A stretch of 64,000 bases of DNA from the NCBI GenBank assembly GCA_001823065.1, contig MHTJ01000003.1, positions 9,844 through 73,843 of the forward strand. Direction: 5' to 3'. Positions within the stretch are counted from its first letter, which is position 1. Every line of letters begins with the position of its first letter. The translations under genes and the position numbers were made by a program. A model generated the notes under the pieces. It was not told the DNA's origin and did not search any database. It saw only the letters and a program-made list of their open reading frames with translations. Shown here piece by piece: positions 5,877 through 63,509 of the stretch. The stretch comes from Candidatus Vogelbacteria bacterium RIFOXYD1_FULL_44_32 (GTDB taxonomy: Bacteria; Patescibacteriota; Minisyncoccia; Phycocordibacterales; XYD1-FULL-46-19).

Positions 5877-5879
5877 CTA

Positions 5880-7151: not shown

Positions 7152-7172
7152 ATACCTTTTATTATGTAAATC

Positions 7173-7829
7173 ATGACAGAAATCTTGGAAAAAATATATA
7201 CGACTCGTCACGACCATAAAGACGCCTTGGGTGGGGGGTCGAGTGGGTTTGAGGCCGAACGGGTAGCTCTTTTTGTTAGCTTGATTGGTAGTGGGAAACG
7301 GGTGCTTGATTTGGGTTGTCGTGACGGTCGAATCGCTCGTCATCTACTGGCTAGTGGTAATGAGGTGGTTGGTTTTGATGTTGATTCCAATGCTCTTAAA
7401 CGTTGCCCACCGGGGATGGTAACCGAATGGAAGGATTTGAATGATGATTGGCACCGCGGGTATGAAGGTCAGTTTGATGTTGTGGTTGCTTCAGAAGTGA
7501 TTGAACATATTTACTATGCTGACCGGACTGTGGCGAAAATTGTAGCTGTTCTAAAACCAGGTGGGGTGTTTATCGGTTCGGTGCCCAATGCATTTAATAT
7601 CAAAAATCGTTTACGCTTATTGTTTGGGCAAATCCAAAATACACCCTTGGCCGAGCCGACACATATCAATCACTTTTCGTATCAATCTCTTACTAGACTT
7701 TTAGCCCAACAATTTGCCGCCGTTTGGGTCAGTGGGATTGCCAGACCGCGCTGGCGTCTGGTGGCTAAATTGTTACCCGGTTTAGGGGGTTCACTTTTAG
7801 TATTTAAAGCTCAAAAACCGAAGAATTAG
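7173..7829 (+). CDS. class I SAM-dependent methyltransferase
   Basis: Motif I VLDLGCRDGRIARHL and a post-I acidic residue ...GFDVD. Confidence 0.8.
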   Translation: MTEILEKIYTTRHDHKDALGGGSSGFEAERVALFVSLIGSGKRVLDLGCRDGRIARHLLASGNEVVGFDVDSNALKRCPPGMVTEWKDLNDDWHRGYEGQFDVVVASEVIEHIYYADRTVAKIVAVLKPGGVFIGSVPNAFNIKNRLRLLFGQIQNTPLAEPTHINHFSYQSLTRLLAQQFAAVWVSGIARPRWRLVAKLLPGLGGSLLVFKAQKPKN

Positions 7830-10963: not shown

Positions 10964-11918
10964 ATAAATTAGCGTAGAGATTTTCTTTGTCTGGATATTT
11001 GGCCTCAATGGCGTACTTCAGACTCTTATCAACTTGATTGTGAATTTCTTTTTCAATTTCGACTAGCATATTTTCGGCAATTCCTTCGCTGTAAAGTTGG
11101 TCTTTTAATTTCTTTAGAGAATCTTTTTCAAGGCGGACTTCAAGCACATCTTCTTCACGATAACCTTGAGCATCATCAAATATTGGTGCGCTGTGTGCCA
11201 TATGTCGATAGGTTATACATTCTAAGACGGCTGGCCCTTCGCCATTCTTTATTTTTTCTACTAAACGCTTTGATTTATTAAATACATCTTGATAATCATT
11301 TCCGTCAGCTTTTATATACTCTACTCCAAAACCTGTAACAATTTGTTCTGTATTGTGTTTGGCCGATCTTCGATCTCTCATTTTTGAATTAACTGAATAA
11401 AGATTGTTTTCTACTACGAGTAAAAGGGGTAGATTAAACAGCGCAGCTAAATTTAAGGTTTCATACACTACCCCTTCTTCAAAGGCACCATCACCACAAA
11501 ATACGGCTGTAATATTTTTTTTGGCTGAGTATTTTTGTTCGAAAGAACTGCCATTTGCTAAAGGGACGGCACTTCCTAAAATTGGGGTTGAACCAATAAA
11601 ATTTACTGATTTATCAATCATGTGCATGGAACCACCTTTACCCTTAGCCAGTCCGTCCTCTTTTCCTAAAAGTTCACAGATCATTTTTTTTAAATTGCCG
11701 CCTTTGGCTAAATAGTGACCATGGGAACGGTGGTTACCCATAACCCGATCCTCTTTTTCTAGAGCATTACAAACGCCAACAGCAACCGCTTCTTGACCGA
11801 CACAAAAGTGAACAAAACTCATAACCTTGTTTTCTAAATAATATTTTGCAATTTCCTCTTCCGCTATTCGGATGGAAAGCATCTTTTTATAAGCATCAAG
11901 AAGGAGGGGGGAGGACAT
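10956..11918 (-). CDS. thiamine-PP enzyme, transketolase N-terminal section / E1 alpha-like
   Basis: ThDP-binding motif GDGAFEEGVVYETLNLAALFNLPLLLVVENNLYS. The preferred start is ATG 11918 (MSSPLLL), not the TTG at 11933. Confidence 0.8.
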   Translation of the reverse strand: MSSPLLLDAYKKMLSIRIAEEEIAKYYLENKVMSFVHFCVGQEAVAVGVCNALEKEDRVMGNHRSHGHYLAKGGNLKKMICELLGKEDGLAKGKGGSMHMIDKSVNFIGSTPILGSAVPLANGSSFEQKYSAKKNITAVFCGDGAFEEGVVYETLNLAALFNLPLLLVVENNLYSVNSKMRDRRSAKHNTEQIVTGFGVEYIKADGNDYQDVFNKSKRLVEKIKNGEGPAVLECITYRHMAHSAPIFDDAQGYREEDVLEVRLEKDSLKKLKDQLYSEGIAENMLVEIEKEIHNQVDKSLKYAIEAKYPDKENLYANLYV

Positions 11919-49026: not shown

Positions 49027-51204
49027 GTGTATATGTTCAAAAGTATCCTAAAGACCAATAAAACAAAAATCTTCACTCTACTCCTAGTAGCGGTGGTAGT
49101 TTTTGGTGCCTTTGGTTTACCCCTGACCACTTATGCCGACGACGGTAGTGCTACCGCTTCAGTGGATTCAACCTCGACTGCGGACACTGGTGATACTGGT
49201 AGTACAGACACCGGCAGTGCGGATGCTAGTACCAGCGAAAGTGCTTCTGGTTCAGCTGATACTACTGCCACCGGCTCAACCGAAGAGCCAACGGGCACTG
49301 GAGAGGGTGTATCGGACACTGACCAGAGTGTATCGGACACAGATTCAACCACCACTTCCGGTGAGGGTGAGACTGGTACCAGTGACCAGAATACTGGCGA
49401 TACTCAAACTGGGGATAACTCTACAGGGGAAGAAGAAACCAGTGATACTGGCACGACCACTACTCCGATCTTGCCTGATACAGAAAACACTGATACTGGC
49501 ACGACTACGGAGCCGACCTTACCTGGAGATAATGGGACCACGACGGTTCCTGTGCTTCCTGAAGGGGGTGATACTGGTACGACCACCGTGGCGACTACTA
49601 CCGAGCCAGTGACTGGTGGTGAAGACCAAGATGAACTTCCTTTAGTAGAGGGATATCTTCCTCCGGCGGAAGATGTGTCAGGTGAATATGATATGACTAC
49701 ATCCGAGGACGATGGGTTGCCAGCGGTAGCTGAAGATGTTTCCGCTGAATACAACTTCACCACTCTATCGGACACTCTGCCAGCGGTGGAAGAGGAGGTC
49801 TCCCTCGAATACAATTTTAATACACTTGAATCAGGAGGGGGAACTCTAGCTGAAGATGTTTCCGCTGAGTACCACTTCACGACTCTATCGGACAATAATC
49901 CTCCAGTTGACGAGGAGTATTCCTTGGAGTACCACTTCACCACTCTATCGGACACAAATCCTCCAGTGGATGAGGAACACTCCAATGAATATTTCTTTAC
50001 GACATTGTCCGATACAAATCCTTCTAGCGAGGAGTTTTCTAATGAATACAATTTTACCACCGACGATGATGGTGGTACTAATCCACCAAATGAGGAATAT
50101 TCTAATGAGTACCAATTTGGAACTACTGGTGGGGGTGGAACAGAAACGGAAGAAGAATATTCCAATGAGTACAGCTTTACCACCGACGATGATGGTGGTA
50201 CTAATCCACCAAATGAGGAATATTCTAACGAGTACCAATTTGGAACTACTGGTGGGGGTGGAACAGAAACGGAAGAAGAATATTCCAATGAGTACAGCTT
50301 TACTACCGATAACGGTGGCTGTACCGAAAATTGTGGTGGCGGAGGTGGAGGCGGTGGTGGCGGAGGCGGGCATAATCACAAAAAGAATAAAGTTTTGCCT
50401 AGTCCGTGCATGCCACTACTCTTGAAATATATTCGCTTGGGGGCCAACAACGATCCGTATGAAGTTTACAAACTGCAGTGGTTCTTGCGGACTTTTGAAA
50501 ATATGGAAATACCTTTGTCCGGAGTGTATGACCAGACCACATATGAAGCAGTAAAAATATTCCAAGCGCGCCATGCGACAGATGTGCTCCACAGCTGGGG
50601 TATTACTGAGCCGACCGGCTATGTCTATATCACCACCCAACTGATGGTAAATTATATTTACTGTGATATTGACGAGCCACTGCGTCTAGAATTATTGCTC
50701 GAGGAACAAACGGGCACTGGTTTTGGTTATACTAAATTACCAAGTAAAGGTGATGGTCTAGACTATCTGGTCTATCCGCCAAAAACCGAGCGTACGGTGT
50801 TTGAAGGTATCACTCTTGATTTACCCGCCGAAGCAGACAAAAAAGTTGGTAATATTTTTCAACTAGCCACCGCCGGTTTTATGGATTGGCTTCAGGGTAC
50901 CGAAGGTAAGTATTGGTGGTGGTTGATTATTTTGCCGTTGGTAGTGGTTGCTGGTTATCTATATCGGCGATTGAAAGTTGAACAAACTGACAAAGAATTA
51001 GCCCAAGAGGCGCAGGCCACAATTTTGGAAGCCGACCGCGAAATGACCGCTGAACCAATTGTCGGAGCCGAGGCGGAGACACCACATAAAGAAGATGTGC
51101 CCGATGAAATTATTGCCGAATACAATGCGGCTAATGGCGGACACCAAGCTGGCCAAGAAGCCATAGTTTTGCCAGGCGAGAGTCTAGAGGACCGAGAGAG
51201 TTAA
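49027..51204 (+). CDS. secreted acidic repeat protein with a PG_binding_1-like peptidoglycan-binding domain, a single TM helix and a cytoplasmic tail
   Basis: It has a signal peptide, a Thr/Asp/Glu/Gly-rich region with ~19-aa repeats (EEYSNEYxFTTLSDTNPP), and a G12 tract. The PG-binding region reads YEVYKLQWFL...SGVYDQTTYEAVKIFQARH and the TM segment is WWWLIILPLVVVAGYLY. Confidence 0.75.
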   Translation: MYMFKSILKTNKTKIFTLLLVAVVVFGAFGLPLTTYADDGSATASVDSTSTADTGDTGSTDTGSADASTSESASGSADTTATGSTEEPTGTGEGVSDTDQSVSDTDSTTTSGEGETGTSDQNTGDTQTGDNSTGEEETSDTGTTTTPILPDTENTDTGTTTEPTLPGDNGTTTVPVLPEGGDTGTTTVATTTEPVTGGEDQDELPLVEGYLPPAEDVSGEYDMTTSEDDGLPAVAEDVSAEYNFTTLSDTLPAVEEEVSLEYNFNTLESGGGTLAEDVSAEYHFTTLSDNNPPVDEEYSLEYHFTTLSDTNPPVDEEHSNEYFFTTLSDTNPSSEEFSNEYNFTTDDDGGTNPPNEEYSNEYQFGTTGGGGTETEEEYSNEYSFTTDDDGGTNPPNEEYSNEYQFGTTGGGGTETEEEYSNEYSFTTDNGGCTENCGGGGGGGGGGGGHNHKKNKVLPSPCMPLLLKYIRLGANNDPYEVYKLQWFLRTFENMEIPLSGVYDQTTYEAVKIFQARHATDVLHSWGITEPTGYVYITTQLMVNYIYCDIDEPLRLELLLEEQTGTGFGYTKLPSKGDGLDYLVYPPKTERTVFEGITLDLPAEADKKVGNIFQLATAGFMDWLQGTEGKYWWWLIILPLVVVAGYLYRRLKVEQTDKELAQEAQATILEADREMTAEPIVGAEAETPHKEDVPDEIIAEYNAANGGHQAGQEAIVLPGESLEDRES
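50050..50289 (+). repeat. 2 x 120-bp near-perfect tandem repeat inside the 49027 gene
   Basis: NEYNFTTDDDGGTNPPNEEYSNEYQFGTTGGGGTETEEEYS is encoded twice, with only 1-2 nt differences. Confidence 0.8.
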
Positions 51205-51285: not shown

Positions 51286-54200
51286 ATGGTGTCTAACCAC
51301 TCTAAGCGGTATAAAGGCCGATATTCATTTCTAACTTACATCAAGCCAGCTTTCCTAGTGCTGGCTTTTTTATTCTTTTTCCAATTAATCACGCCAGTCG
51401 CCCTGGCTCAAGACGGGACGGTGGAGGAATCATTGCCGCTTCCTCCGGCAGAGGAGCCAGCACCCGTTCTTCCGCCGGCCGGAGGTAGTATCAGCGACCC
51501 CGAAGCTCCAGCCGAACTGGCAGCAGTTGCGGAGGAAGACAACCTAGTCGCTTTGTCACTTACTGTCACCAGTCGTTCGCCGGTAGACTTAGGCAAGCCA
51601 CCAGTGGGAACGGGCTTTAAAATTTCGGCCGACACCTCGGACGGCTCGCTGGCATATGAGTTTCCCCTGACTCTCCCTCCTGGCCGCCAGGGTTTGGCCC
51701 CGGAGCTGTCTTTGCTCTATTCTAGCCGTCCTACTAGCGCTACCTCTTTATTTGGTTACGGTTGGACGTTGTCGATTCCTTTTATCGAACGAAAAAATCT
51801 TCATGGTTCGGATCGGCTGTACGAGGAGACAGATTTCACTTCTTCCTTAAGTGGTGACTTGGTGGCCTTAGGCGGCGAGACCTATCGCGCCAAAGTTGAT
51901 GAGGGGGAGTTTCTGGTTTATGTTTTCCGCGATAATGCTTGGACAGTGACAGACAAAAGCGGCATGGTCTACCGCTTCGGCCAGACCGCCGCCGCCCGTC
52001 AGGATGATGCTGATCATCCGACCCACGTCTACAAATGGATGCTCGAGGAAGTTCGCGATCTAAACGGAAATTATGTTACCTATCGTTATGCCAAAGATTC
52101 CAACCAAATTTATCCGGAATCAATAACTTATACTCACCATGCTGATACGGCTGGTCTATATTCAATACGCTTCATCAAAACTCCACGTGATTATCCCGTC
52201 ACCTCTTGGGCGGCAGGTTTTAAAGTTGTCACCAATCATATTATAAGTGAAATAGTTGTTGAAGTCGGAGGAGGGTGGACGAGGAAGTATTCTTTCGCCT
52301 ATACCCAGCGAGACAACCAGAGTCGGTCATTGCTAACCTCAATCATCGAATGGGGAAATGACGGTTCAAAAATCATCTCTTTACCACCGACCACCTTTAC
52401 TTATCAAGTATCAGCTAAGGCCTGGGTTGAAAACAGCCGTTGGACTTTGCCAGTGTCTCTTGTCGGAGACAACTACGAAGACACGGGCGCGCGAATTGCC
52501 GACATTAATGGCGATGCTTTACCCGATATTATAACTAATAATAATGGCTCCTTTCTTAACACTGGTTACGGTGACTGGGACAGAGCCGGCCCCGAGTGGA
52601 CCCTGCCTGTGGCGTTGACGAAACCAGATGTGGTCCACCCTGGAAGTATGTTGATTGACGTTAATGGTGATGGATTGATTGATATTGCCCAAAGTCGGGA
52701 TGGTGATGAGGACCCGGATATTGTCTATTTTAATACTGGCCACGGCTGGGTGACATCGTCGACCACGGTTCCGGTCTATTTTGCGACGCGAAACGGCAGT
52801 GATAACGGAGTCCGGGTTGCCGACATTAATGGCGACGGTCTGCCTGATTTGTTGCGTTTTCATGCTGGCGACGGCGCATTGGGTAATCGTGTTTATATCA
52901 ATAATGGTTCCGGCTGGAGCGAAGATCGGTCCTGGGTTTTACCGGAGCCGACCCTTGCCGGCGACGGCCAGACTGATTTGGGCACGCGTTTTGGCGACGT
53001 TAATGGTGATGGCCTAGTCGATATCCTTCGCAAAGATGAAAGCGTTAGTAAAGTCTATTTCAATACTGGTCACGGTTGGGAACTGGCCTCTGCTTGGGTT
53101 ATTACCGCCGAGGAATTTATGAACGACGGTGGTGATCGAGGCACGCGAGTTTATGATGTCAATAGTGACGGATTTGACGATCTTGTGAATAGTCAGGCGC
53201 CAGGTGATGTTGGTGTTTATCTCAATACGGGTAGTCCTTCTAACGACTGGACTTTAGACATGAGCTGGCGTATTCCTTTCAGGTTGGTTGATTATCTTCG
53301 CGACGGGGGCCGTTACGTTGATCCGGGAACGCGGTTGGTGGATTTAAACGCTGACGGACTCCTGGACATACTTCAGTCACGATCAAGTGGCCCGAACCAG
53401 GTTTATTTTCAAGCTGGCCCACAGCCTGATCTCCTTCAGAGTGTGACATTTAGTCGGGGCGGTGGGGCGAACATTACCTATCTCTCCAGCACCTTTTATC
53501 ATCCAAATGGTCTTGGTCGTCTCAATCAAAAGTTGCCGTTTCCGATGATAACGGTTAGTACGATTACCGAGCACGATGGCCTCGGCGGTAGTGCCACTAC
53601 CGAATATAGTTATAAAAATGGCGAATATTATCACGAGAACATTCTTGACCGAAAATTTGCCGGCTTTGGCCAAGTGGAAAAAACCGATGCCATGGGCAAT
53701 ATTACTAAAACCTATTTTCACCAAGGTAATGATTCTGATTCTGGTCGCGGGGAATTTGAAGATCATTTTAGTAAAATTGGGCGAATTTATCGAGTAGAAA
53801 AATATGATTCAGCTGGCAATTTATTGACCCAAGAAATTAGTCGGTGGGGGAGGGTGGCCTTGGCTGTCAGCGCTGGCCTTGATCGATCTTTTGTTCCATT
53901 GTTAAACAATATAAAAATGACTTACGATGGCGACAATAGTCACCGTGATGTGGCTGAAGCCTATACTTATGATAATTTTGGTAATTTAGTTCGGGCCGAA
54001 AATTATGGTGAAGTGGTGGCTAGTGACGATGGAAGTTTTAGTGATCTGGGTTCTGATAAAACAACCAAGATTTTGAGTTATGTCACAAACTCAACAACGG
54101 GCATATTGGGGTTAGTAAGGATGGAAGAATTGAGAAATAACAATGGAGCCAATGTGGCGGTCAAAAAATATTATTATGATAATCTTCCCATTGGGGCAGT

Positions 54201-57192
54201 TCAACGGGGCAATTTAACCAAAACGGAAAGTTGGGTTGGGGGCACTAAATGGGTGACGACGGCCAATAGTTATGACAACCAGGGTTTACTTAAAACAAGT
54301 ACTGATGGGCGAGGATATTCCACCACTTATTTATACGACGAATTTGGCTTGTACCCTAGTACAATATCCAATTCTCTAGGGCAGGTCACGTCCTATCAAT
54401 ATGATTATGCTTCAGGGCAGGTCACTAAAGAAACTGACCCTAATGGTTTTGCTAAAATTAAAATATACGATGGGTTGGGGCGAGTGGTTACTGAAAAAGA
54501 GCAAACAGGTGGGGTGGCCGAGGTGGTGACAAAAGAAACATTTTATCGTGACGATATTGTACCTAAACTTATTCAGACCAAAAAATTTCTTCTCTTAAAT
54601 TTATCTAACGAGGTCTATAGTTATTTTGATGGTCTGGGTCGACTAGTCGAAGAGAGGACGCAAATGGAAAATGCCGGCGACTATGCTGTGACCTCGCTTA
54701 AATACAACCCAAAAGGAGAATTATTAGCTAAGACTTTGCCCTACCTGGAAACTGGTTCAAGTTATACTGCACCAACCTTTCCCGTTGGTCTTACCACTAA
54801 TTTTACTTACGACTCTCTTGGTCGGGCTAAAACGGTGAGTGATTCGCTGGGCACGACCAATTACTCTTACACCGATTGGGTGACTACAATTACCGACCCG
54901 CTTGGCAAAGTCAAAAAATATACGACCGACGCTTATGGCCGACTAATCTTGGTTGATGAGGGGTATGGCAAGGGCTTTTATCATACTCGGTATTATTATA
55001 GTCCCACGGGTAATTTAATCAGGATTATGGATGCACTGAATAATATCCGTGATTTTACTTATGATAACCTGGGGCGTCGTCTGTCGGCTCAAGACTTGCA
55101 TCAGTCGAGCGATACTAGTTTTGGTCTGTGGTCTTATACCTATGACGATAATAATAACCTGTTTTCCAGGAAAGATCCGCTCGGTCAAACTGTAAATTAT
55201 ACTTACGATGGCCTAAATCGGCCATTAATAGAAGACTATCTCGGTCGAGCCAATCCGGAGGTAAAATATACTTATGACAATTGTATAAATGGAGTGGGGC
55301 GCTTGTGTAAGGTGGCTATAGTTGGACTGTCTAAAAATTATCAATATACTCCGCGTGGTGAAGTACGGGTGGACAACAGAGTTTATAATCAAGCTTCTTA
55401 CACTACAGTCAATGCTTACGATTTAGCTGGCAATATAGTATCTATTCGTTTACCCGACAACAGTCAAATTATTTATGAATATAATTTAGTTGGAAAAGTT
55501 GAAAACATATCACGCCGTGATATTTTCAATAGCTCGGCCATTATCCCCGTTGTTTCCAATTTTGATTATAGCCCTCATGGCTTACCTGTTTATCAGCAAA
55601 ATGCTGATGGCATAAAAAATATATTTACCTATGACCCGACCAAAAGTTATCGTCTGCAGACAAAGACAACCAAAAAAGATAATATCAATTATCAATTAGT
55701 TAGTTATGAATATGATTCAGTTGGTAATATTACCAAACTCATTGATACCTCTCCTAACCTATTAGCCAAGACAGTTAGTTATACTTATGACGATCTCTAC
55801 CGACTGACCAAGGCCGTAGCGACCAACGCCAGTTCGACTTTATATTCCCAAGATTTTCTTTATGGCCCAACGGGGAACATTTTGAAAGGGTCGATGGGTA
55901 TATATGCTTACAGTGGTATCGATTTTACTTCACCTCAAGCTGTAACCTCAATTGCTTCTTCTACTTACAGCTATGATAAAAACGGCAATATGTTAACCGC
56001 CCCTAGCGCCACTTACGCTTGGGACTACAATAATCGCTTAGTTAAGAGTGTGGCCGGAACCACTACCACCACCTATGAATATGACAACGAAGGCCAACGA
56101 ATCTCTCAAAAAACTGGAGCCAGTGCTACACTGTATATTAGCCCCAACTACGATTTGACCGGTTCGGTCATTGATAAACATGTCTATGCTGGTGACCAGT
56201 TAGTCGCTACTCTCCGTACTCAAAACGGCACCACTAGCCCTTATTACACCCACTCCGACCACCTGTCCGGCACTAGTCTGGTAACTGACCAAAATAGTAA
56301 CGTGATGCAGAGCATAGACTATTTACCTTATGGTGCCAAAAGAATAAGTTCTGGAACGGATGTTTCTCAAAGAGAGTTCATTGGTCAAATTTATGATGAA
56401 TTGACTTCGCTAAGCTATCTGAATGCACGCTACTACGATGGGTCGAGAGGACAATTTCTTTCCCAAGATCCAATGTTTTGGCAACTTCCATCGACCTTGC
56501 TCGTAGATCCTCAACAGCTAAATTCTTATAGCTACGCAAGAAACAATCCTCTAATATATAAAGATCCACTAGGTCTATACAACATAAAAACTGGAGCTGT
56601 TGAAAAGGGTGATAATCTGTCTAAGATTAGAAATTTGATTAATGGGGCAAATGGAACAAGCTACTCTGTTTCTCAACTTGCGAAGCTAAATAATATATCA
56701 AATCCAGATCGTATTTATGTTGGTCAAACAATCAAACCGAATAACTTGGTCCCAGATATTACAAGATCCCTGAATAGTGTCAATCAATCACATGGAGTGC
56801 AAGCCCAGGGTCCGGTTGTTGCAGGTTCTGGTTCTACCAATTCTACTCCAGCGGCCAAGGGTATAGGGTCGGTTGAATTTGGATGGAATTTTAGGGAAGG
56901 AGGTAAATGGGATTTGAAGTCGCAGGGTTCAAATGTAGAAGGAGGAGTATTCTGCCAGAAGTCAGCTTGTGGAGGACAGAGAGCAACAAGTTATATTTAC
57001 AATTCTCAAGAAGTCTCGGGTGACGCACCAGGAAATATTCATTATGGTTATGTTGGCAAAAGAGCAGAGTATAGTGAAAGCACACTCTTATTCTTCGGTG
57101 GAGCAGTTCAAACTATTACACACCCAGGTCAATTTGGAGACCCTAGTTCTGACAAAACTTACATCATGCAGGGTTATGGGTTAAACTATTAA
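51286..57192 (+). CDS. RHS/YD-repeat polymorphic toxin with SpvB-like N-terminal domain and FG-GAP beta-propeller (Tc-toxin TcB-TcC-like fusion), C-terminal LysM plus unknown toxin domain
   Basis: Signal peptide; SpvB motif GSLAYEFPLTLPPGRQGLAPELSLLYSS; six DxNGDGxxD FG-GAP repeats; more than 20 YD repeats (YxYDxxGRL); RHS core end DPQQLNSYSYARNNPLIYKDPLGL; and then a LysM (GDNLSKIRNL...IYVGQTIKP) plus a ~110-aa Cys-containing domain. Confidence 0.9.
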   Translation: MVSNHSKRYKGRYSFLTYIKPAFLVLAFLFFFQLITPVALAQDGTVEESLPLPPAEEPAPVLPPAGGSISDPEAPAELAAVAEEDNLVALSLTVTSRSPVDLGKPPVGTGFKISADTSDGSLAYEFPLTLPPGRQGLAPELSLLYSSRPTSATSLFGYGWTLSIPFIERKNLHGSDRLYEETDFTSSLSGDLVALGGETYRAKVDEGEFLVYVFRDNAWTVTDKSGMVYRFGQTAAARQDDADHPTHVYKWMLEEVRDLNGNYVTYRYAKDSNQIYPESITYTHHADTAGLYSIRFIKTPRDYPVTSWAAGFKVVTNHIISEIVVEVGGGWTRKYSFAYTQRDNQSRSLLTSIIEWGNDGSKIISLPPTTFTYQVSAKAWVENSRWTLPVSLVGDNYEDTGARIADINGDALPDIITNNNGSFLNTGYGDWDRAGPEWTLPVALTKPDVVHPGSMLIDVNGDGLIDIAQSRDGDEDPDIVYFNTGHGWVTSSTTVPVYFATRNGSDNGVRVADINGDGLPDLLRFHAGDGALGNRVYINNGSGWSEDRSWVLPEPTLAGDGQTDLGTRFGDVNGDGLVDILRKDESVSKVYFNTGHGWELASAWVITAEEFMNDGGDRGTRVYDVNSDGFDDLVNSQAPGDVGVYLNTGSPSNDWTLDMSWRIPFRLVDYLRDGGRYVDPGTRLVDLNADGLLDILQSRSSGPNQVYFQAGPQPDLLQSVTFSRGGGANITYLSSTFYHPNGLGRLNQKLPFPMITVSTITEHDGLGGSATTEYSYKNGEYYHENILDRKFAGFGQVEKTDAMGNITKTYFHQGNDSDSGRGEFEDHFSKIGRIYRVEKYDSAGNLLTQEISRWGRVALAVSAGLDRSFVPLLNNIKMTYDGDNSHRDVAEAYTYDNFGNLVRAENYGEVVASDDGSFSDLGSDKTTKILSYVTNSTTGILGLVRMEELRNNNGANVAVKKYYYDNLPIGAVQRGNLTKTESWVGGTKWVTTANSYDNQGLLKTSTDGRGYSTTYLYDEFGLYPSTISNSLGQVTSYQYDYASGQVTKETDPNGFAKIKIYDGLGRVVTEKEQTGGVAEVVTKETFYRDDIVPKLIQTKKFLLLNLSNEVYSYFDGLGRLVEERTQMENAGDYAVTSLKYNPKGELLAKTLPYLETGSSYTAPTFPVGLTTNFTYDSLGRAKTVSDSLGTTNYSYTDWVTTITDPLGKVKKYTTDAYGRLILVDEGYGKGFYHTRYYYSPTGNLIRIMDALNNIRDFTYDNLGRRLSAQDLHQSSDTSFGLWSYTYDDNNNLFSRKDPLGQTVNYTYDGLNRPLIEDYLGRANPEVKYTYDNCINGVGRLCKVAIVGLSKNYQYTPRGEVRVDNRVYNQASYTTVNAYDLAGNIVSIRLPDNSQIIYEYNLVGKVENISRRDIFNSSAIIPVVSNFDYSPHGLPVYQQNADGIKNIFTYDPTKSYRLQTKTTKKDNINYQLVSYEYDSVGNITKLIDTSPNLLAKTVSYTYDDLYRLTKAVATNASSTLYSQDFLYGPTGNILKGSMGIYAYSGIDFTSPQAVTSIASSTYSYDKNGNMLTAPSATYAWDYNNRLVKSVAGTTTTTYEYDNEGQRISQKTGASATLYISPNYDLTGSVIDKHVYAGDQLVATLRTQNGTTSPYYTHSDHLSGTSLVTDQNSNVMQSIDYLPYGAKRISSGTDVSQREFIGQIYDELTSLSYLNARYYDGSRGQFLSQDPMFWQLPSTLLVDPQQLNSYSYARNNPLIYKDPLGLYNIKTGAVEKGDNLSKIRNLINGANGTSYSVSQLAKLNNISNPDRIYVGQTIKPNNLVPDITRSLNSVNQSHGVQAQGPVVAGSGSTNSTPAAKGIGSVEFGWNFREGGKWDLKSQGSNVEGGVFCQKSACGGQRATSYIYNSQEVSGDAPGNIHYGYVGKRAEYSESTLLFFGGAVQTITHPGQFGDPSSDKTYIMQGYGLNY
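52501..53375 (+). other. FG-GAP/integrin-like beta-propeller repeat region of the RHS protein
   Basis: Repeats DINGDALPDI, DVNGDGLIDI, DINGDGLPDL, DVNGDGLVDI, DVNSDGFDDL and DLNADGLLDI. Confidence 0.7.
56579..57189 (+). other. hypervariable C-terminal toxin module (CT1) downstream of the RHS DPLGL autoproteolysis motif; LysM at ~56590-56730
   Basis: Sequence similarity to the orphan copies stops exactly after YKDP(L/T)G. Confidence 0.7.
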
Positions 57193-57201
57193 TAAATTGA
57201 G

Positions 57202-57777
57202 ATGAAAAAATATTCATTCAAAAAAATAATTACTATTTTAGCTGTTGCACTAGTACTGGTAATTCTAATTTACTATATTCTTGGTGAGTTAGGAGGAAAT
57301 GCTTTCCGTATCCGAGCAGGTTTGTTGATTCATAAAGAAGAATTTAATGAATTTGTAGACAAGTTCCTTAATCAAAATTCTATAAAAAATATTCAAACGT
57401 CTGTTGGTTTCTTTAGCACTACGGAAAGTATAAATAGTTGTAGCCGCTATCCTGAAGAAGGCGATACACCTTGGACTTGTAGTGAGGGGGAATACCCAAA
57501 TATCGTATCAATAAATCTTGCGAGTATTAATGCAGTTTTAGAACATGAACATATCCCGAATGAAGAATACCAATACTTTGTTGATTTTATGGAAAGATAT
57601 AAATTCAACGGTGTGGGTAAGAATAATAATGACAGATCTGTCGAAATAGAAGATAAACTAAAAGGCTTGAGATATTACGAACAACAAAATTCAAGTAAGC
57701 TTACTGAAAATAATGAGTATCTTTTTGTTAAAAAAATTAATGAACATTGGTTTTACTATGTGAGAGATTGGAATTAG
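57202..57777 (+). CDS. putative cognate immunity protein for CT1 (N-terminal TM anchor)
   Basis: A small ORF 10 nt downstream of the toxin gene. Both position and size are typical of RHS immunity genes. Confidence 0.5.
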   Translation: MKKYSFKKIITILAVALVLVILIYYILGELGGNAFRIRAGLLIHKEEFNEFVDKFLNQNSIKNIQTSVGFFSTTESINSCSRYPEEGDTPWTCSEGEYPNIVSINLASINAVLEHEHIPNEEYQYFVDFMERYKFNGVGKNNNDRSVEIEDKLKGLRYYEQQNSSKLTENNEYLFVKKINEHWFYYVRDWN

Positions 57778-57789
57778 GATAAATAGAGA

Positions 57790-58881
57790 TTGAAATTTGA
57801 CAACGAAGGCCAACGAATCTCTCAAAAAACTGGAGCCAGTGCTAAACTATATATTAGCCCCAACTACGATTTGACTGGTTCGGTCATTGATAAACACATC
57901 TACGCTGGTGACCAGTTGGTTGCCACCCTGCGTACCCAAAACGGCACCACTAGCTCTTATTACACCCACTCTGACCACTTGTCTGGCACTAGTCTGGTGA
58001 CTGACCAAAATAGTGTGATTACTGAACTAATCGACTATTACCCCTACGGCGATATTCGCCTAGACCAAAAAACCTCCACCTACAATGAAAGCAAGAAATA
58101 TATTGGTCAGGAGTATGATGAGGCTACTGGTCTTTCTTATATGAATGCCCGTTATCAAAATGGAAAAACAAGTCGATTTTTGAGCCAGGATCCTGTGTTT
58201 TGGGAAATCGGAAATGAGGGAGAGATCAAGCAGAAGACGGGGCTCGGTCTACAAGAACTCCTAGCTGATCCTCAGCAATTTAACAGCTATTCTTACGCTC
58301 GGAACAATCCGATTACATATAAAGATCCAACAGGTAATCTTACTTGGGGGGCTCTCTTAAATCATCCTATTGGTAGCATACAAAGTGCGACAAATTGGGG
58401 ATTATTTTCTCTCGGCGGAAACATTATGAATAAACCATTTGCAGCCTCTCTTTTGAGACATTCAGCTTCCCTTAATCCTTCTGCAGAACTTAATATAGAT
58501 TCTGGTAATCAAAAGCAATATGGAAATCCAGTTGACCAAGTAATGCAGACAGATCAGTACAAGAACTACATTAAAGATACAATCCAGAGAGCGGAGAGCG
58601 GTAAGATGAAAAACTCAACTCACTTTGAGTTTGAAAATAGAAGTGATTTGTACTACGCCTTACATGGTGCAAATATTGAATCACAAATTACTCAAGAAAA
58701 TGGGGAATGGGTAGTAAATAGCACTGTGTCAGATAAATATGATTTTAATAAACCTAATCCTCAAACAGAGAAGGGTAGAGTAATTAAAATTCCTGCAAGT
58801 AATGCTTATAAAGCTCAAAGTAAGGGTATCCTAAGTAACTATAATGTAAAGATTAAAATTAGTGATAGAATTAAAAAATAA
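57790..58881 (+). CDS. orphan RHS C-terminal fragment (rhs core remnant plus alternative toxin domain CT2), TTG start
   Basis: 57796-58020 is ~90% identical at the DNA level to 56086-56310 of the main rhs gene. It retains DPQQFNSYSYARNNPITYKDPTG and then a novel ~185-aa C-terminus. Confidence 0.8.
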   Translation: MKFDNEGQRISQKTGASAKLYISPNYDLTGSVIDKHIYAGDQLVATLRTQNGTTSSYYTHSDHLSGTSLVTDQNSVITELIDYYPYGDIRLDQKTSTYNESKKYIGQEYDEATGLSYMNARYQNGKTSRFLSQDPVFWEIGNEGEIKQKTGLGLQELLADPQQFNSYSYARNNPITYKDPTGNLTWGALLNHPIGSIQSATNWGLFSLGGNIMNKPFAASLLRHSASLNPSAELNIDSGNQKQYGNPVDQVMQTDQYKNYIKDTIQRAESGKMKNSTHFEFENRSDLYYALHGANIESQITQENGEWVVNSTVSDKYDFNKPNPQTEKGRVIKIPASNAYKAQSKGILSNYNVKIKISDRIKK

Positions 58882-58886
58882 ATATC

Positions 58887-59396
58887 ATGAAGAGAAAACT
58901 GCTAATTATTGTAACTAGTGTCACATTAATTATTTTGGGTGGTGCCATGTTTCTGTACTACTTTTGGTTTGTTGCTCCAGAAAAAAAGATTGCATTGGAG
59001 TGTCAAAATTTTGTTCCAAGTTGGTTGGATTTTATTGAATGTTCAGGAGTAGTTGCTATCAATGATGGGTGGGATATGGATTATATTTCACTCAAGGATC
59101 ATGTTCATGACTATGAAATTGCACGTGTCTATGATCAGAAGCAATACTTGTTTGTTGAGAATAAGCTATTTGTAATCAATCAAAAGTATATTGAAAATAG
59201 TGCCTCAGATAACGTTGAGGTTACTTATTATCATAAGTTGTTCCAAAATGGAAAATTGATTGAGAACTCTTACGGTAGTATTTCTGATATCCCGACCTAT
59301 TTAATTGTCGACACTAAAACGGGGGAAGTAAAAGCATATAAAGATCTGATGGAAGCTTCTGAAGCAGAAAAGAAGTATTTTTCTGAAATAGAATAA
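58887..59396 (+). CDS. putative immunity protein for CT2 (N-terminal TM helix)
   Basis: Immediately follows the orphan CT2 with a 5-nt gap. Confidence 0.5.
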   Translation: MKRKLLIIVTSVTLIILGGAMFLYYFWFVAPEKKIALECQNFVPSWLDFIECSGVVAINDGWDMDYISLKDHVHDYEIARVYDQKQYLFVENKLFVINQKYIENSASDNVEVTYYHKLFQNGKLIENSYGSISDIPTYLIVDTKTGEVKAYKDLMEASEAEKKYFSEIE

Positions 59397-59408
59397 ATAT
59401 CTCTACAA

Positions 59409-59723
59409 ATGCCTCAGGTAATACCATTAGAAATATTGAATAATTGTGTCGTAAATTTAAGACAAGAAACTAGCGCTGGTGATTTTAAGGTGGGAACAGG
59501 AATTCTTATTGGAAAAGATAACAAACTTTTACTCCTTACAGCTGAACATGTCGCACGGGATATGAAGAATGATGAGAAGCTTATCTTAAGAGTTGATAAT
59601 AATTTACCAATAAGCTTAGAAATTATTCAAGTTTGTAAGTTAGATAATTCAGGAAATATACCATATATAATGGTTCAAATGATCATGCTAAAAGATATGG
59701 AGAAAGAATTAATGCTCAATTGA
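59409..59723 (+). CDS. short protein resembling the N-terminal fragment of a trypsin-like serine peptidase (GTGILIG...LLLTAEHVA)
   Basis: The catalytic-His-like motif TAEHV is present but the ORF is only 104 aa. It may be a gene remnant. Confidence 0.3.
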   Translation: MPQVIPLEILNNCVVNLRQETSAGDFKVGTGILIGKDNKLLLLTAEHVARDMKNDEKLILRVDNNLPISLEIIQVCKLDNSGNIPYIMVQMIMLKDMEKELMLN

Positions 59724-59804
59724 ATAACCCAAACTATAATAAGAACATCGTTGCTAATCAATTGAAAAAATTTATTAAATCATTTAATAAATCAAAGTAA
59801 AAAT

Positions 59805-60143
59805 ATGAAAAATAAAGCGGTTAAAAATCTATATTTAATAACAGGATTATTTTCAATCGTTCCTTTCTTTATTTATTACTGGGAAGCGATGCGTGGGAGG
59901 TTGCCAGATCCAGATGTATGGTTTATGGATTCCAATCACGGTCCTTGGAGATATGAATTACAGGGATTTCTAGTCCTTAATCCGATCCTGTTATTGCTAC
60001 TTATCACAGGAATATTATTCTTGAAGAACGTATTTAAGCTTAAAGAAAATAAAGATGCTGCATTTTATTTGGGATCTTTGATTGTCATTCAAATTCTAGT
60101 TCTTTTACTACAGCTTTTTGTGATGGGATGGACTATAGATTAG
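59805..60143 (+). CDS. small membrane protein (3 TM)
   Basis: A hydrophobic ORF within the cassette array. Confidence 0.4.
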   Translation: MKNKAVKNLYLITGLFSIVPFFIYYWEAMRGRLPDPDVWFMDSNHGPWRYELQGFLVLNPILLLLLITGILFLKNVFKLKENKDAAFYLGSLIVIQILVLLLQLFVMGWTID

Positions 60144-60822
60144 TCCCATTAAAGACATTTAAATCAACGTTCCCTTTTATTCCATCAATACTCCCTCTGG
60201 GATTATATTGCCAAATTTCCCAATCACCGATTTTTTTTGTATCAGGTTTTGAAAAAATATCTCTTATCCATATCTTTTCTTTCTCAAATTCTGGGTAGAG
60301 ATAATCTTCATAAAACTCGTAAGTAGTATAAAGAATTGGCTGTTTATTATAGTGACTCGAAATAACTCTTAGGTAGATTCTAAGTCCATTTACAAATTCC
60401 TCTTTTGGGGGTCTTTTTTTACTGTTACCGACATATTCCAGATCGACAACTGGTGGAAGCTGATACTTATCTAGTGGTACAGTTTTGATAAAATTTTCTG
60501 CTTGGATCTTGCCAGAGTGGGCTAAGGAATAGAAGTGGTACGCTCCAGTCGGAATATTATTTTTTATTGCATTATTCCAATTGAACATAAATTTAGCATC
60601 TCTTAAGTCATTAGCTTCTGTAGCTTTTATGTAAGCAAACCCTACGTCATCTTTTGAGACAGCTTGCCAATCAATGTCTCCCTGATAGTGTGATACGTCT
60701 ATACCCCTTATAGGGTATTTACTTCGATCCGGGTTGACTAGCCAAATCTTTCCCTGAATAAATAAAAAAAGTGATATGACAAATGCCAACAACAAAAAAA
60801 ATAGGAGTAATTTTTTACACAT
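60133..60822 (-). CDS. secreted GH25-family lysozyme (muramidase)
   Basis: It has a signal peptide. Motifs GIDVSHYQGDIDWQAV, GFAYIKATE and GAYHF form the GH25 signature. Confidence 0.8.
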   Translation of the reverse strand: MCKKLLLFFLLLAFVISLFLFIQGKIWLVNPDRSKYPIRGIDVSHYQGDIDWQAVSKDDVGFAYIKATEANDLRDAKFMFNWNNAIKNNIPTGAYHFYSLAHSGKIQAENFIKTVPLDKYQLPPVVDLEYVGNSKKRPPKEEFVNGLRIYLRVISSHYNKQPILYTTYEFYEDYLYPEFEKEKIWIRDIFSKPDTKKIGDWEIWQYNPRGSIDGIKGNVDLNVFNGTNL

Positions 60823-60851
60823 CGTCTATATGTTAATATTAAAAGCAAAAT

Positions 60852-61793
60852 ATGAAAAGCCCCTATTACACCCACTCTGACCACTTGTCTGGCACTAGTC
60901 TGGTAACTGACCAAAGCAGTGTGATTACTGAACTAATCGACTATTACCCATACGGCGATATTCGCCTAGACCAAAAAACCTCCACCTACAATGAAAGCAA
61001 GAAATATATTGGTCAGGAGTATGATGAGGCTACTGGTCTTTCTTATATGAATGCCCGTTATCAAAATGGAAAAATCGGGCGGTTTTTGAGTCAGGATCCA
61101 GTATTTTGGGAGGTAGGACAAACCGATGAAGGTAAAGCCTCCCTAATGAATCCGCAAGCGCAAAATAGCTACAGCTATGCGGGTAATAATCCTATAACTA
61201 ACAAAGATCCGAGTGGACGTTTCTGGTGGGTTGGGTTCTATGATTGGAGCGGTTATGAGGGAATGAGTGGTGTGGCTATGAAAGCGGGTGAGGTCTTAGG
61301 AGGTCACTCGCGTGCTATGAATGCTATTCAACAGAATCAGAGCACGATTAATTCAGCGAGTTCAAAATACGGTGTCGATCCGGCCTTAACTAGTGCAATC
61401 ATAAGGGAAGAGCAATCACATCTTCTGCCTGGCGAAGGAATGAAAGATGCCGCGTTCCCAGACTCTCAACTGGCGGGATATGATGGAGGTGTGGGTATTA
61501 TGCAGGTAAGCGGTCGTGTAGGAAAAGACTTCGGTGGCTACACAAAAGCCGAGCTTGCTCGAAATCCTCAGAAGAATATTGATTCAGGGACGGCGTACTT
61601 GGAAAATATAAGTAGCTCTAGAAATACGACTAATCCTGCCACTATTGGAACAGCGTATAATGGCGCAGGCGCATACGGACAACGCATCCAATCACAGATG
61701 AATAATCCAAATTACAATACAAACGTTGTAGTTTATGGACTTCAGAAACTTGTTAAATCATTAAATTCTTATGTTAAAAGTCTTAAAAAATAA
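60852..61793 (+). CDS. second orphan RHS C-terminal fragment with lytic-transglycosylase (SLT)-like toxin domain (CT3)
   Basis: 60862-61110 is ~97% identical to 57957-58205. After NPITNKDPSG it carries AIIREEQSHL...GGVGIMQVSG...TAYL...AYNGAGAYG (E...GxMQ...AYNxG, SLT family 1-like). Confidence 0.75.
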   Translation: MKSPYYTHSDHLSGTSLVTDQSSVITELIDYYPYGDIRLDQKTSTYNESKKYIGQEYDEATGLSYMNARYQNGKIGRFLSQDPVFWEVGQTDEGKASLMNPQAQNSYSYAGNNPITNKDPSGRFWWVGFYDWSGYEGMSGVAMKAGEVLGGHSRAMNAIQQNQSTINSASSKYGVDPALTSAIIREEQSHLLPGEGMKDAAFPDSQLAGYDGGVGIMQVSGRVGKDFGGYTKAELARNPQKNIDSGTAYLENISSSRNTTNPATIGTAYNGAGAYGQRIQSQMNNPNYNTNVVVYGLQKLVKSLNSYVKSLKK

Positions 61794-61799
61794 AATGTC

Positions 61800-62285
61800 A
61801 TGAAAAGAAATACTTTAATTTTGTTAGGGATTCTTGGCTCAGTTGTTCTAGTAATTGCCTTATATGTAGGAGGCTTCATCTGGATTGTGCCGAAGATGCA
61901 CGATGAAACCCTAACTAAGTTCTCAAACCAAATCTTTTCTGTGCAATTACCCGCTGATACTACCCAGGTCGATTCAATAAGTGTAATTGGCCAGCAATTT
62001 GCGAATGGAAATCATTGTGATTATCTGGCGGCGAGGTTGCTTGAGACATCGCTCCAAAAAGAAAAGCTAGAAAATGACTTTGAAGAGAACTACCAAGGAA
62101 CATCAAAACTACAATTTATCTGGCTGGATGAAAGTAATGCCTACACTGATGACATCTTTGACTCTTCAAAGATTTACTCATTGGATGATTGGCTAGACCA
62201 ACACGCACAAACTTCAAAAGCTGATGTAGTTGTCTATCTTTTTGAAGGCCATATGACATCATCATTTGATTATCGTTGTCGCTAG
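61800..62285 (+). CDS. putative immunity protein for CT3 (N-terminal TM anchor)
   Basis: Lies 6 nt downstream of CT3. Confidence 0.5.
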   Translation: MKRNTLILLGILGSVVLVIALYVGGFIWIVPKMHDETLTKFSNQIFSVQLPADTTQVDSISVIGQQFANGNHCDYLAARLLETSLQKEKLENDFEENYQGTSKLQFIWLDESNAYTDDIFDSSKIYSLDDWLDQHAQTSKADVVVYLFEGHMTSSFDYRCR

Positions 62286-62451
62286 GTAGCTGTCGTATTC
62301 ACCTCTACTTATCACTGCAGTTGAAGCATATGGTCTTCTTTCTATCTTTACTGAGAGGGTAAGGTTGATGAGGTAGGAGCTTACTTTGAGTAATTCTTTA
62401 TCTCGGTTGGTCTATATTGATTTTTTGTAGGATCTAGTAATGTGACTTTAT

Positions 62452-62649
62452 ATGAAAAATAACATTACTATAAAGTTGTTGATTGTAGGTATAATAATGC
62501 TTCTTTGTTATGTTGCTGGTTTGTTTGTGTATGATGTAGTATCCGATCGCGACCCAGTAGTAAAATATGTCTCTAATTCGCGCGAATCAGGGAATATAAA
62601 AAAGTGGGTGGATGATGGGTGGATTAAGGCGGGGCGGACAATTTTATAA
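62452..62649 (+). CDS. small membrane protein (65 aa)
   Basis: Has a single TM helix. Support is weak. Confidence 0.3.
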   Translation: MKNNITIKLLIVGIIMLLCYVAGLFVYDVVSDRDPVVKYVSNSRESGNIKKWVDDGWIKAGRTIL

Positions 62650-62699: not shown

Positions 62700-63509
62700 A
62701 TGAGAAATATTTTGTTGGTTGGTGGCGGTTTAATTTTACTGACCATATTGGTTTCTTTTGTATTATCCGCAGGGGTGGAGACGGGAGTTCAATCTAAGAC
62801 CGTAGCGATATTAGCGACTAGTACGGCAAAAATAGCGATTGAGGCGACATCAACTGGCCCTGCGTTTTTAGTAGTGCCGAAAGTATTAAACAGCTATCAA
62901 GTGGTAAAAGTAGTGGATGGGGACACGGTAGTGGTAAATATAAATGGCAAGACAGAAACTTTGCGCCTGATTGGGATAAATACGCCTGAGACAGTGGACC
63001 CGCGGAAAGCGGTGGAATGTTTTGGTAAAGAAGCCTCGGCCAAAGCCAAAAGTCTGCTTGCTGGGCAAACGGTACGGCTAGAAGCCGACCCAAGCCAAGG
63101 TGAACGGGATAAATATAACCGGTTGTTGTGCTATGTTTTTTTAGCTGACGGGACTAATTTTAATAAACTAATGATAAGCCAGGGCTTTGCTTACGAGTAC
63201 ACCTACAACTTGCCCTACAAATATCAGGCGGAATTTAAATTAGCGGAAAGGGAAGCGCGTGAACTAAAAAAAGGTTTGTGGGCTGATGGGGTGTGCGAAG
63301 ATAAAATCGTGACCAAAGAGACCCCCGCCGCGCAAAGCGCGGCGGGGGTGGGGGAAAATTATATTTGTGACCGCAATGTTTATAATTGCACAAACTTTAA
63401 GACTCAAACTGAAGCTCAATCAGTTTTTACAGCTTGTGGTGGTCCAATGGCTGACCCCCACAAATTGGACAGTGATGGCGATGGGGTGGTGTGCGAGAGT
63501 TTAAAATAA
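62700..63509 (+). CDS. secreted thermonuclease (SNase-family) with C-terminal Excalibur calcium-binding domain
   Basis: N-terminal TM/signal segment. The SNase core reads [29 protein letters not shown]...[13 protein letters not shown]. The C-terminal [10 protein letters not shown] is the Excalibur motif. Confidence 0.85.

Follow-up and report, generated by a model that had tools for sequence, protein, structure and literature searches.

Can the rhs fragments that lie behind a full-length rhs gene serve as a store of toxin tips for that gene in a bacterium of the candidate phyla radiation (CPR)? The question is raised by a locus of Candidatus Vogelbacteria bacterium RIFOXYD1_FULL_44_32, an uncultured host from the Parcubacteria group of the CPR. 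Here a stretch of 64,000 nucleotides (nt) of contig MHTJ01000003.1 (positions 9,844 to 73,843, part of a 495-kb scaffold; called the window below, with position 1 as its first letter) carries a main rhs gene followed by two shorter rhs fragments. The original prediction, made from the letters of this DNA, had read the region as an array of orphan rhs C-terminal tips (rhs-CT) and immunity genes, in which homologous recombination swaps the tip of the full-length gene. Our analysis confirms the array and, as far as sequence can tell, supports its interpretation as a tip-swap array. We consider it probable (at roughly 80%) that the region represents the 3' end of a polymorphic CPR Rhs locus, in which a Sec-exported cocoon is accompanied by swappable tip/immunity cassettes, two of them intact and one decayed.

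The open reading frame (ORF) map returned the genes, their coordinates and the TTG start of orphan 1 exactly as originally predicted (Table 1). Both orphans lie downstream of the full-length rhs gene and on its strand, are truncated at their 5' ends, and lack the export/delivery region and most of the shell. The core that they retain up to a DPxG motif amounts to 167 codons in orphan 1 and 109 codons in orphan 2. TIGR03696 (Rhs_assc_core) of NCBIfam matches the main gene and both orphans (E 1e-15 to 7e-18), and all three proteins contain the motif YxYxxNNPxxxxDPxG, in the form YSYA[RG]NNP...[KN]DPxG, at 56527-56574 (main gene), 58288-58335 (orphan 1) and 61170-61217 (orphan 2). Both conserved aspartate positions (..SQDP.. 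and ..KDPxG) are likewise kept in each. After the motif the sequences are unrelated: the main protein continues into a LysM-Ntox44 tip, orphan 1 into a domain without assignment (CT1), and orphan 2 into an SLT lytic transglycosylase. A small ORF with a single N-terminal hydrophobic segment follows every tip, as predicted, at 5-9 nt from the tip stop (9 nt for the main gene, 5 nt for orphan 1 and 6 nt for orphan 2). All four structural hallmarks of the orphan rhs-CT/immunity architecture are present, and its tip/immunity pairs are seen elsewhere in the opposite state. In GenBank the genes of the array (OHA58443-OHA58450) are each annotated 'hypothetical protein'.

The fragments are connected by blocks of highly similar DNA, which we delimited with BLAST and by comparison position by position. 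The main gene and orphan 1 share 221 nt at 91.9% identity (E 3e-90, longest exact run 47 nt), and the two orphans share 254 nt at 94.5% (E 8e-114, longest exact run 124 nt); both alignments are ungapped and in frame. Orphan 2 compared with the main gene directly has only 58 nt in common with it (93%). Both blocks had been recognized in the original prediction, with somewhat different measures: the first was placed at 57796-58020 against 56086-56310 (coordinates off by 2-12 nt) with about 90% identity, the second at 60862-61110 against 57957-58205 with about 97%. Divergence had further been located exactly after YKDPxG. This holds for the proteins, but the DNA of high identity ends ahead of the DPxG motif, by 276 nt between the main gene and orphan 1 and by 106 nt between the orphans. 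The 5' boundary of a cassette lies inside the region that encodes the end of the core, around the motif NARYY..RF.SQDP, and not at DPxG. Synonymous codon differences outnumber non-synonymous ones within the blocks, at 14:4 (main gene/orphan 1) and 6:4 (orphan 1/orphan 2), and this predominance fits copies that diverged within working genes of different lineages rather than copies decaying neutrally in place.

Each of the three cassettes has counterparts in other genomes (related loci that we fetched carry L numbers, related proteins P numbers). In L014, a contig of a metagenome-assembled genome titled Candidatus Saccharibacteria, a 459-residue orphan rhs fragment with a LysM-Ntox44 tip lies together with a downstream 191-residue ORF between housekeeping genes. 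Positions 5879-7234 of this contig match positions 56420-57776 of the window with 81% DNA identity over 1358 nt, a span that opens about 150 nt ahead of the motif and closes with the final codon of the immunity gene; the tip is 88% and the immunity protein 74% identical at the amino acid level. The SLT tip of orphan 2 is found in L017 at the end of a full-length Rhs protein of 2594 residues with the same architecture. The shell of this protein is only 36-42% identical to that of the main gene in the window, and positions 7463-8713 of L017 match 61092-62342 with 86% DNA identity over 1253 nt. The left edge of the cassette defined in this way coincides with the right edge of the block shared by the orphans (61111). 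CT1, for its part, terminates P0020, a 2537-residue SpvB/FG-GAP/RHS protein (HMMER, E 1e-72). For every tip of the array a full-length carrier is thus known, and for the main tip an orphan form as well. The evidence of alternative junctions that the original prediction had asked for comes from a comparison between genomes, in which all three tips occur in the opposite state (L017, L014, P0020), and not from one between strains. These comparisons show that cassettes consisting of about 125-155 nt of core end, tip and immunity gene move horizontally and occur both fused and as orphans.

Tip and immunity gene are always adjacent in these loci, and their amino acid identities co-vary from locus to locus (tip/immunity 91/92, 62/58, 65/58, 68/56 and 88/74%). 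Relative to L014, dN/dS is 0.08 for the tip and 0.13 for the immunity gene; relative to L017, the values are 0.06 and 0.18. Ratios of 0.06-0.18 indicate that both partners are under purifying selection. Exchange may also take place within a cassette. The identity between the orphan 2 tip and L017 steps from about 78% to about 94% near position 61640 (about 8010 in L017), and dS against L017 is 1.19 for the SLT tip and 0.21 for immunity gene 3. The step falls at the same point of the SLT tip at which a relic of another such tip begins in the window, at 59660. It seems, then, that the tail of the SLT tip and the immunity gene have been exchanged as a separate sub-unit. Related CPR loci contain arrays as well: L013 has a main gene with an orphan and L017 a distal orphan, so that this genome is not alone in showing the pattern. 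Most of the ORFs downstream of the tips in these loci encode membrane proteins.

The properties of the main gene suggest how its tip might be delivered. Pfam and NCBIfam place, in this order, a signal/transmembrane segment, SpvB, FG-GAP, TcdB_toxin_midN, RHS repeats, Rhs_assc_core, LysM and Ntox44 along the protein, with matches for the RHS/YD repeats (PF05593, E 5.5e-37; TIGR01643, E 4e-21). The hydropathy scan locates the Sec-type signal/transmembrane segment at N-terminal residues 13-43 (...VALA|QD). Among structures in the PDB, the N-terminal part matches YenB (TcB) in sequence, and the C-terminal shell matches the Rhs entries 8h8a and 7q97. Based on this, the main protein is a fused TcB/TcC-like (BC-type) cocoon with a Sec signal. 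Among the genes of the array, moreover, only this one is preceded by a strong Shine-Dalgarno sequence (AAGGAG). Orphan 1 has AGGA 10 nt upstream of its start, while the ATG of orphan 2, 29 nt from the start of a divergent GH25 gene, has no recognizable Shine-Dalgarno sequence. The hydropathy scan detected neither a signal peptide nor a transmembrane segment in either orphan.

We propose the following mechanism. By analogy with the Rhs/TcC family, the main protein would be exported by Sec, and the cocoon would hold its tip until cleavage at the DPxG site sets it free. RecA-type recombination between the copies of block A would delete 56298-58014, and with it the main tip and immunity gene 1, to leave an in-frame, full-length Rhs-CT1. 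A second event, between the copies of block B, would then install the SLT tip on the full-length gene; as orphan 2 shares so little sequence with the main gene directly, this tip would be reachable mainly in two steps. Fusion of an orphan tip to a main Rhs protein by homologous recombination has been shown experimentally in Salmonella (PMC3967940). All three immunity candidates have a Lys/Arg-rich N-terminus, one transmembrane segment and two cysteines in the remaining domain, from which an N-in/C-out orientation is predicted, with the bulk of the protein outside the cell. Taken together with the LysM and SLT domains, this outward orientation makes it most likely that the tips act on the envelope or peptidoglycan from outside, and the immunity proteins would then protect the producer's own wall. 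Since the orphans lack both an export signal and a strong ribosome-binding site, they are probably not put to use in their present form and would represent silent reserves, whose immunity genes could still protect against neighbours deploying the same tips.

Several results weigh against this mechanism. No recombinant junction, whether between the main gene and an orphan or between orphans 1 and 2, was present among the contigs that encode the exact immunity 2 protein, and no alternative junctions came to light when the proteins of orphan 1, orphan 2 and immunity 2 were looked up by exact match. Two gapped DNA patterns written for the predicted deletion junctions found no match in the JGI metagenome contigs, while a control pattern worked on the window. 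This negative is a weak one, since assemblies suppress minority variants and the full representation of the parental sequence in the JGI collection is not established. With no recombinant found, swapping at this locus is something we infer rather than observe. The GH25 gene on the reverse strand, the peptidase fragment and the SLT-tail relic inside the array also imply a history messier than clean serial displacement. While the nested block identities fit the serial displacement originally proposed, it is not the sole route, as lone orphan cassettes at three non-rhs loci (L005, L009 and L014) indicate that a cassette can arrive without displacing a resident tip. The progressive 5' truncation that had been taken as the mark of serial displacement does not follow position along the array, because a coreless SLT relic with its downstream ORF (59660-60143) sits between the two orphans; the history of the locus comprises at least three or four events. 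Finally, toxicity, neutralization, topology and export are all predictions, and AlphaFold2 gave models of low confidence for both the CT1 tip (3-sequence alignment, mean pLDDT 35.6) and the LysM-Ntox44 tip (5-sequence alignment, mean pLDDT 45.1, confident in the LysM part only).

How far do these points favour other explanations? It could be that the orphan tips are decaying stubs without future use, and that the immunity genes are kept against the toxins of neighbours. The locus L009 looks like just such a case of immunity outliving its toxin: at 10001-11567 its CT1-type orphan is frameshifted (246 + 103 residues), with the downstream 170-residue immunity homolog intact. In the window the SLT-tail relic is followed by an intact ORF, and the lack of an export signal and of a strong Shine-Dalgarno sequence in the orphans, as well as the failure to find recombinants, point the same way. 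We regard this as possible, if rather on the unlikely side. Both orphans in the window are open over their full length, core stub and tip alike, the differences in their core stubs are mostly synonymous with long exact runs kept, and the tips have dN/dS values of 0.06-0.08 against relatives in the opposite state. A reserve of immunity genes is in any case compatible with tip swapping rather than exclusive of it. Another view holds that the cassettes were inserted downstream of the main gene as mobile units, for example together with serine-recombinase islands, and were never tips of this rhs gene. The lone cassettes at non-rhs loci (one of them, in L005, beside an island with recombinase, methyltransferase and OLD genes), the trace of a recombinase gene directly after immunity gene 3, the island of recombinase, methyltransferase and CBASS (cyclic oligonucleotide-based antiphage signalling system) genes inside the rhs array of L017, and the foreign GH25 and peptidase sequences inside the array of the window would all be consistent with it. 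We nevertheless judge it unlikely. The nesting is the one that stepwise displacement predicts, with orphan 2 resembling orphan 1 (94.5%) far more than the main gene and orphan 1 in turn resembling the main gene (92%), and the core stub of orphan 1 starts 17 nt past the stop of immunity gene 1, exactly at the cassette end defined by L014.

That the orphans are small toxins expressed independently from their own TTG or ATG, and acting without an Rhs shell, seems very improbable to us. In-frame starts are available in both, with AGGA ahead of that of orphan 1, and elsewhere short versions do occur with their own signal peptide (P0010) or as orphan-like ORFs with an N-terminal transmembrane segment (L011, L013). 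The orphans of the window, by contrast, have neither feature, their immunity proteins are predicted to face outward, and the ATG of orphan 2 lies at the truncation junction with the unpromising surroundings described above. An artefact of assembly, in which reads were collapsed or duplicated to produce repeats and orphans, was named as a refuting outcome in the original prediction, and we assign it a negligible chance. Some short contigs from other samples (L023, L024) do end within one or the other copy of the 254-nt repeat, but a genuine repeat would be expected to cause such breaks. Between the repeat copies there is a difference of 6-8%, and the tips to which they lead are unrelated; independent assemblies of other samples gave contigs without a single mismatch across 58609-62639 and 59881-62604 (100% identity), so that the junctions recur unchanged in several samples and with several assemblers; and the 12 contigs with the exact 169-residue immunity 2 protein, from at least six samples, all have the same gene order. 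Given copies that differ to this extent and identical independent assemblies, the array is not an assembly duplication. Tip swapping from an orphan array is the reading that we retain in what follows.

Table 1. Features of the rhs array in window coordinates (aa, amino acids; TM, transmembrane segment)
Feature	Position	Strand	Description and basis
Main rhs gene	51286-57192	+	1968 aa; Pfam, NCBIfam, hydropathy scan, PDB sequence matches
Block A, main-gene copy	56078-56298	+	Direct repeat of 57794-58014
Cassette 1	56420-57776	+	Last ~150 nt of core, LysM-Ntox44 tip, immunity gene 1; extent from L014 homology
LysM-Ntox44 tip	56575-57192	+	Part of main rhs gene
Immunity candidate 1	57202-57777	+	191 aa; single N-terminal TM (hydropathy scan)
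Orphan 1	57790-58881	+	363 aa, TTG start; TIGR03696 E 1.5e-16
Block A', orphan 1 copy	57794-58014	+	BLAST and position-by-position comparison
Block B, orphan 1 copy	57952-58205	+	Direct repeat of 60858-61111; 63-nt overlap with block A'
CT1 tip	58336-58881	+	C-terminal part of orphan 1
Immunity candidate 2	58887-59396	+	169 aa; single N-terminal TM, two invariant Cys
Trypsin-like peptidase, N-terminal fragment	59409-59659	+	TAEHV His motif; Trypsin_2 E 0.02 (weak match)
Relic of fourth cassette	59660-59800	+	Final ~45 codons of a further SLT-type tip; Rhs core absent
ORF112	59805-60143	+	3-TM protein, 5 nt after relic stop; position and hydropathy scan
GH25 muramidase	60133-60822	-	Glyco_hydro_25 E 7e-41; N-terminal TM/signal segment
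Orphan 2	60852-61793	+	313 aa, ATG at truncation junction; TIGR03696 E 6.5e-18
Block B', orphan 2 copy	60858-61111	+	BLAST and position-by-position comparison
Cassette 3	61092-62342	+	~125 nt of core end, SLT tip, immunity gene 3, 57 nt downstream; L017 homology
SLT lytic-transglycosylase tip	61218-61793	+	Pfam SLT PF01464 E 5e-9, above cutoff
Immunity candidate 3	61800-62285	+	161 aa; single N-terminal TM, two Cys
Recombinase scar or att-flank	62262-62345	-	27 C-terminal residues of the large serine recombinase found after immunity gene 3 in L017

The main tip contains an Ntox44 domain (PF15607, E 3e-12), whose motifs WDLK, GNIHYG and GDPSSD (WDxK, GNxxxG and GDxxxD) are invariant in the alignment and correspond to the motifs DxK, GNxxxG and DxxxD listed for this family (PMC3482391). 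Zhang et al. 2012 (PMC3482391) assigned neither an activity nor an immunity family to Ntox44. The 191-residue ORF behind the tip, with a Lys-rich N-terminus, two cysteines in the outer domain and a predicted N-in/C-out orientation, is without a match in Pfam or NCBIfam, and for the immunity candidates as a group nothing credible emerged when Pfam was scanned with permissive settings. Short proteins that end in LysM-Ntox44 and have their own signal peptide also occur (P0010, 339 residues; P0012, 354 residues). P0010 carries an Rhs core-end stub ahead of the tip, whereas the N-terminal region of P0012 is unrelated. Such mini secreted versions of the main tip indicate that silence is not required of every short rhs fragment.

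The tip of orphan 1 belongs to an undescribed family of toxin tips. An exhaustive HMMER search returned 152 relatives of CT1 (cluster representatives at 50% identity), in which the domain is always C-terminal and which include some full-length Rhs proteins; close relatives in the word-indexed search were only three, all of them orphan-like. Comparison of CT1 with the PDB, by sequence and with a 28-sequence profile, and of each family member with Pfam gave matches at chance level only. For the relatives P0001 and P0003, the contigs that we fetched encode directly afterwards a 170-residue transmembrane protein 54-58% identical to the 169-residue ORF of the window. Immunity candidate 2 shows this same identity of 54-58% to the ORF after CT1 homologs in three unrelated contexts (L005-L008, L009). 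In L005 (1-11336), a lone CT1 orphan with its immunity gene lies at the margin of an island that encodes two serine recombinases, an N6/N4 methyltransferase and a pair of OLD-family nuclease and UvrD-like type, which forms a second link between rhs cassettes and recombinase-borne defence islands.

The SLT tip of orphan 2 matches the MltC and EmtA structures, and its EE(Q)S aligns on the catalytic E-S motif of MltC. Immunity candidate 3 is 92% identical in amino acids to P0004, the ORF after the SLT-tipped Rhs in L017 and L018, and 58% identical to the ORF that L020 carries behind an SLT tip of 62% identity. A large serine recombinase follows the immunity 3 homolog in L017, L018 and L019, and a comparable one follows the more distant homolog in L020; in L017 the recombinase heads an island of methyltransferase and CBASS genes inserted inside the rhs array. 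Its C-terminus can still be recognized in the window, at 62262-62345 on the reverse strand, where it reads IERRPYASTAVISRGEYDSYLATTIIK before the stop codon, against TERRPYASTEVISRGEYDSYLATTIIK before the stop codon in L017. This remnant is either the scar of a deletion or the flank of an attachment (att) site of an island with recombinase and methyltransferase genes, possibly also with CBASS, of a kind that integrates into rhs arrays or at their edge.

Between the orphans, the ORF called ORF104 (59409-59723) is a composite: a peptidase fragment, probably a junk gene fragment, makes up its first part, and the frame then continues into the SLT-tail relic, which is encoded in a different frame. 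The relic matches residues 267-305 of orphan 2 at 53% identity (tblastn in a small search space, E 8e-11) and its DNA at 72% over 68 nt. Together with ORF112, a candidate immunity gene for which we found no homologs in the fetched loci, it forms a decayed fourth cassette (59660-60143), which was absent from the original prediction. With the intact SLT tip, the SLT-tail relic and the GH25 muramidase, three sequences of peptidoglycan-hydrolase type lie within about 2.5 kb, beside a main tip that bears LysM.

The wider surroundings of the array are chromosomal, with a polysaccharide-biosynthesis cluster, secA, a pilin-like gene and a giant ORF in the window. Just upstream of the main gene (49027-51204, forward strand) lies the gene of a 725-residue protein with long acidic tandem repeats rich in Thr, Glu and Asp, which include 150-nt units of 96% identity (50037-50309), as well as a stretch of poly-Gly and a weak match to PG_binding_1; related Rhs genes do not have it as a conserved neighbour. 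The giant ORF (38526-45899, forward strand; 2457 residues) has an N-terminal transmembrane segment and a TcA-like size; it has no Pfam match and no sign of TcA domains, and is not found beside related Rhs genes. Directly downstream of the array (62700-63509, forward strand) lies the gene of a secreted nuclease of staphylococcal type that bears an Excalibur domain at its C-terminus. Rfam and tRNA scans of the window returned no matches, and scans for consensus promoters and terminators stayed at background level and were uninformative.

The principle by which this locus is organized is well known from other bacteria and is not new; what we have confirmed is its presence in a little-studied group, for which full-text literature searches gave no description of Rhs orphan arrays (CPR/Patescibacteria). 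A textbook mechanism of toxin diversification, the orphan tip/immunity array, is thereby extended to a Parcubacteria-group CPR genome of groundwater. The analysis also provides concrete cassette boundaries and three pairs that can be tested: LysM-Ntox44 with the 191-residue ORF, CT1 with the 169-residue ORF, and SLT with the 161-residue ORF. Within the first of these, the 191-residue ORF becomes a candidate immunity protein for Ntox44. If the tips do act on peptidoglycan from outside, this would suggest how ultra-small bacteria poor in secretion systems fight or attack their neighbours, and the locus hints at a use by CPR bacteria of Sec-exported Rhs cocoons that carry cell-wall toxins acting outward. 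A more ambitious picture, which we offer as speculation and think quite unlikely, starts from the lack of T6SS in CPR bacteria and their life attached to other cells. Sec-exported, TcA-independent BC-type Rhs cocoons may place peptidoglycan-degrading tips (LysM-Ntox44, SLT and CT1) from outside on the walls of neighbours while outward, membrane-anchored immunity shields the producer's own wall, and the orphan array, the exchange of tip tail and immunity gene as a unit near 61640 and the serine-recombinase defence islands at the edge would retune this weaponry to new hosts or competitors.

A close organizational parallel is offered by the main/orphan Rhs arrays of enterobacteria (Salmonella Typhimurium, Escherichia coli, Dickeya and Serratia). 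There, too, a full-length rhs gene is followed by 5'-truncated rhs-CT fragments that keep a core homologous to that of the main gene, differ in the tip after DPxG, and have an immunity gene directly after them. The carriers differ: that of the window consists of a Sec signal and a half with SpvB, FG-GAP and TcdB-mid domains, whereas the enterobacterial ones have a delivery domain linked to PAAR/VgrG and to type VI secretion (T6SS). No T6SS-type domains were detected in the ORFs scanned across the window, and the N-terminus of the main protein is a Sec-type signal followed by SpvB. In addition, the immunity candidates here are anchored in the membrane, not cytoplasmic, the tips seem to be directed at the envelope rather than being nucleases or ADP-ribosyltransferases, and the host is a CPR bacterium.

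In terms of export, WapA/WapI of Bacillus subtilis provides an analogy. WapA is a wall-associated Rhs/YD-repeat toxin of Gram-positive bacteria. Like the system in the window it is Sec-exported and independent of T6SS, has a polymorphic tip with adjacent immunity and belongs to a cell with no outer membrane. Its tips are tRNases neutralized by cytoplasmic WapI, and it lacks the SpvB/TcdB-mid module. The locus in the window follows a similar export logic, but unlike WapA its tips appear to be directed at peptidoglycan and its immunity proteins to face outward. The architecture of the main protein recalls the BC cocoon of Tc toxins (YenB/YenC, TcdB2-TccC3), where SpvB, an FG-GAP beta-propeller, TcdB_toxin_midN, the RHS shell and the Rhs_assc_core autoprotease surround a variable C-terminus. 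It departs from this system in that B and C are fused in one chain and the tip has a cognate immunity gene, and immunity beside the tip implies a bacterial target. No TcA-type Pfam domain was found in the neighbouring ORFs scanned, the 2457-residue ORF included, none of the upstream genes recurs as a conserved neighbour of related Rhs genes, and a conserved accessory or translocator gene beside them was looked for without result. Given the lack of a TcA partner, we do not file the locus as a Tc toxin.

The pairing of a wall-degrading toxin domain, here SLT, with an immunity protein predicted to lie outside the cytoplasmic membrane recalls peptidoglycan effectors of the T6SS and their periplasmic immunity (Tse1/Tsi1, Tse3/Tsi3 and the Acinetobacter lytic transglycosylase Tse4; PMC11796386). 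Those effectors differ from the present system in delivery, which here would rely on an Rhs cocoon and Sec export, and in lacking its organization as an orphan array. That organization finds a further counterpart in the orphan arrays of CdiA-CT/CdiI, where tandem modules of tip and immunity gene, each with a short upstream stretch that is homologous to the main gene, form a reservoir for tip exchange. CdiA, however, is a filamentous carrier of two-partner secretion whose tips are demarcated by VENN, while the tips of the array described here are demarcated by DPxG.

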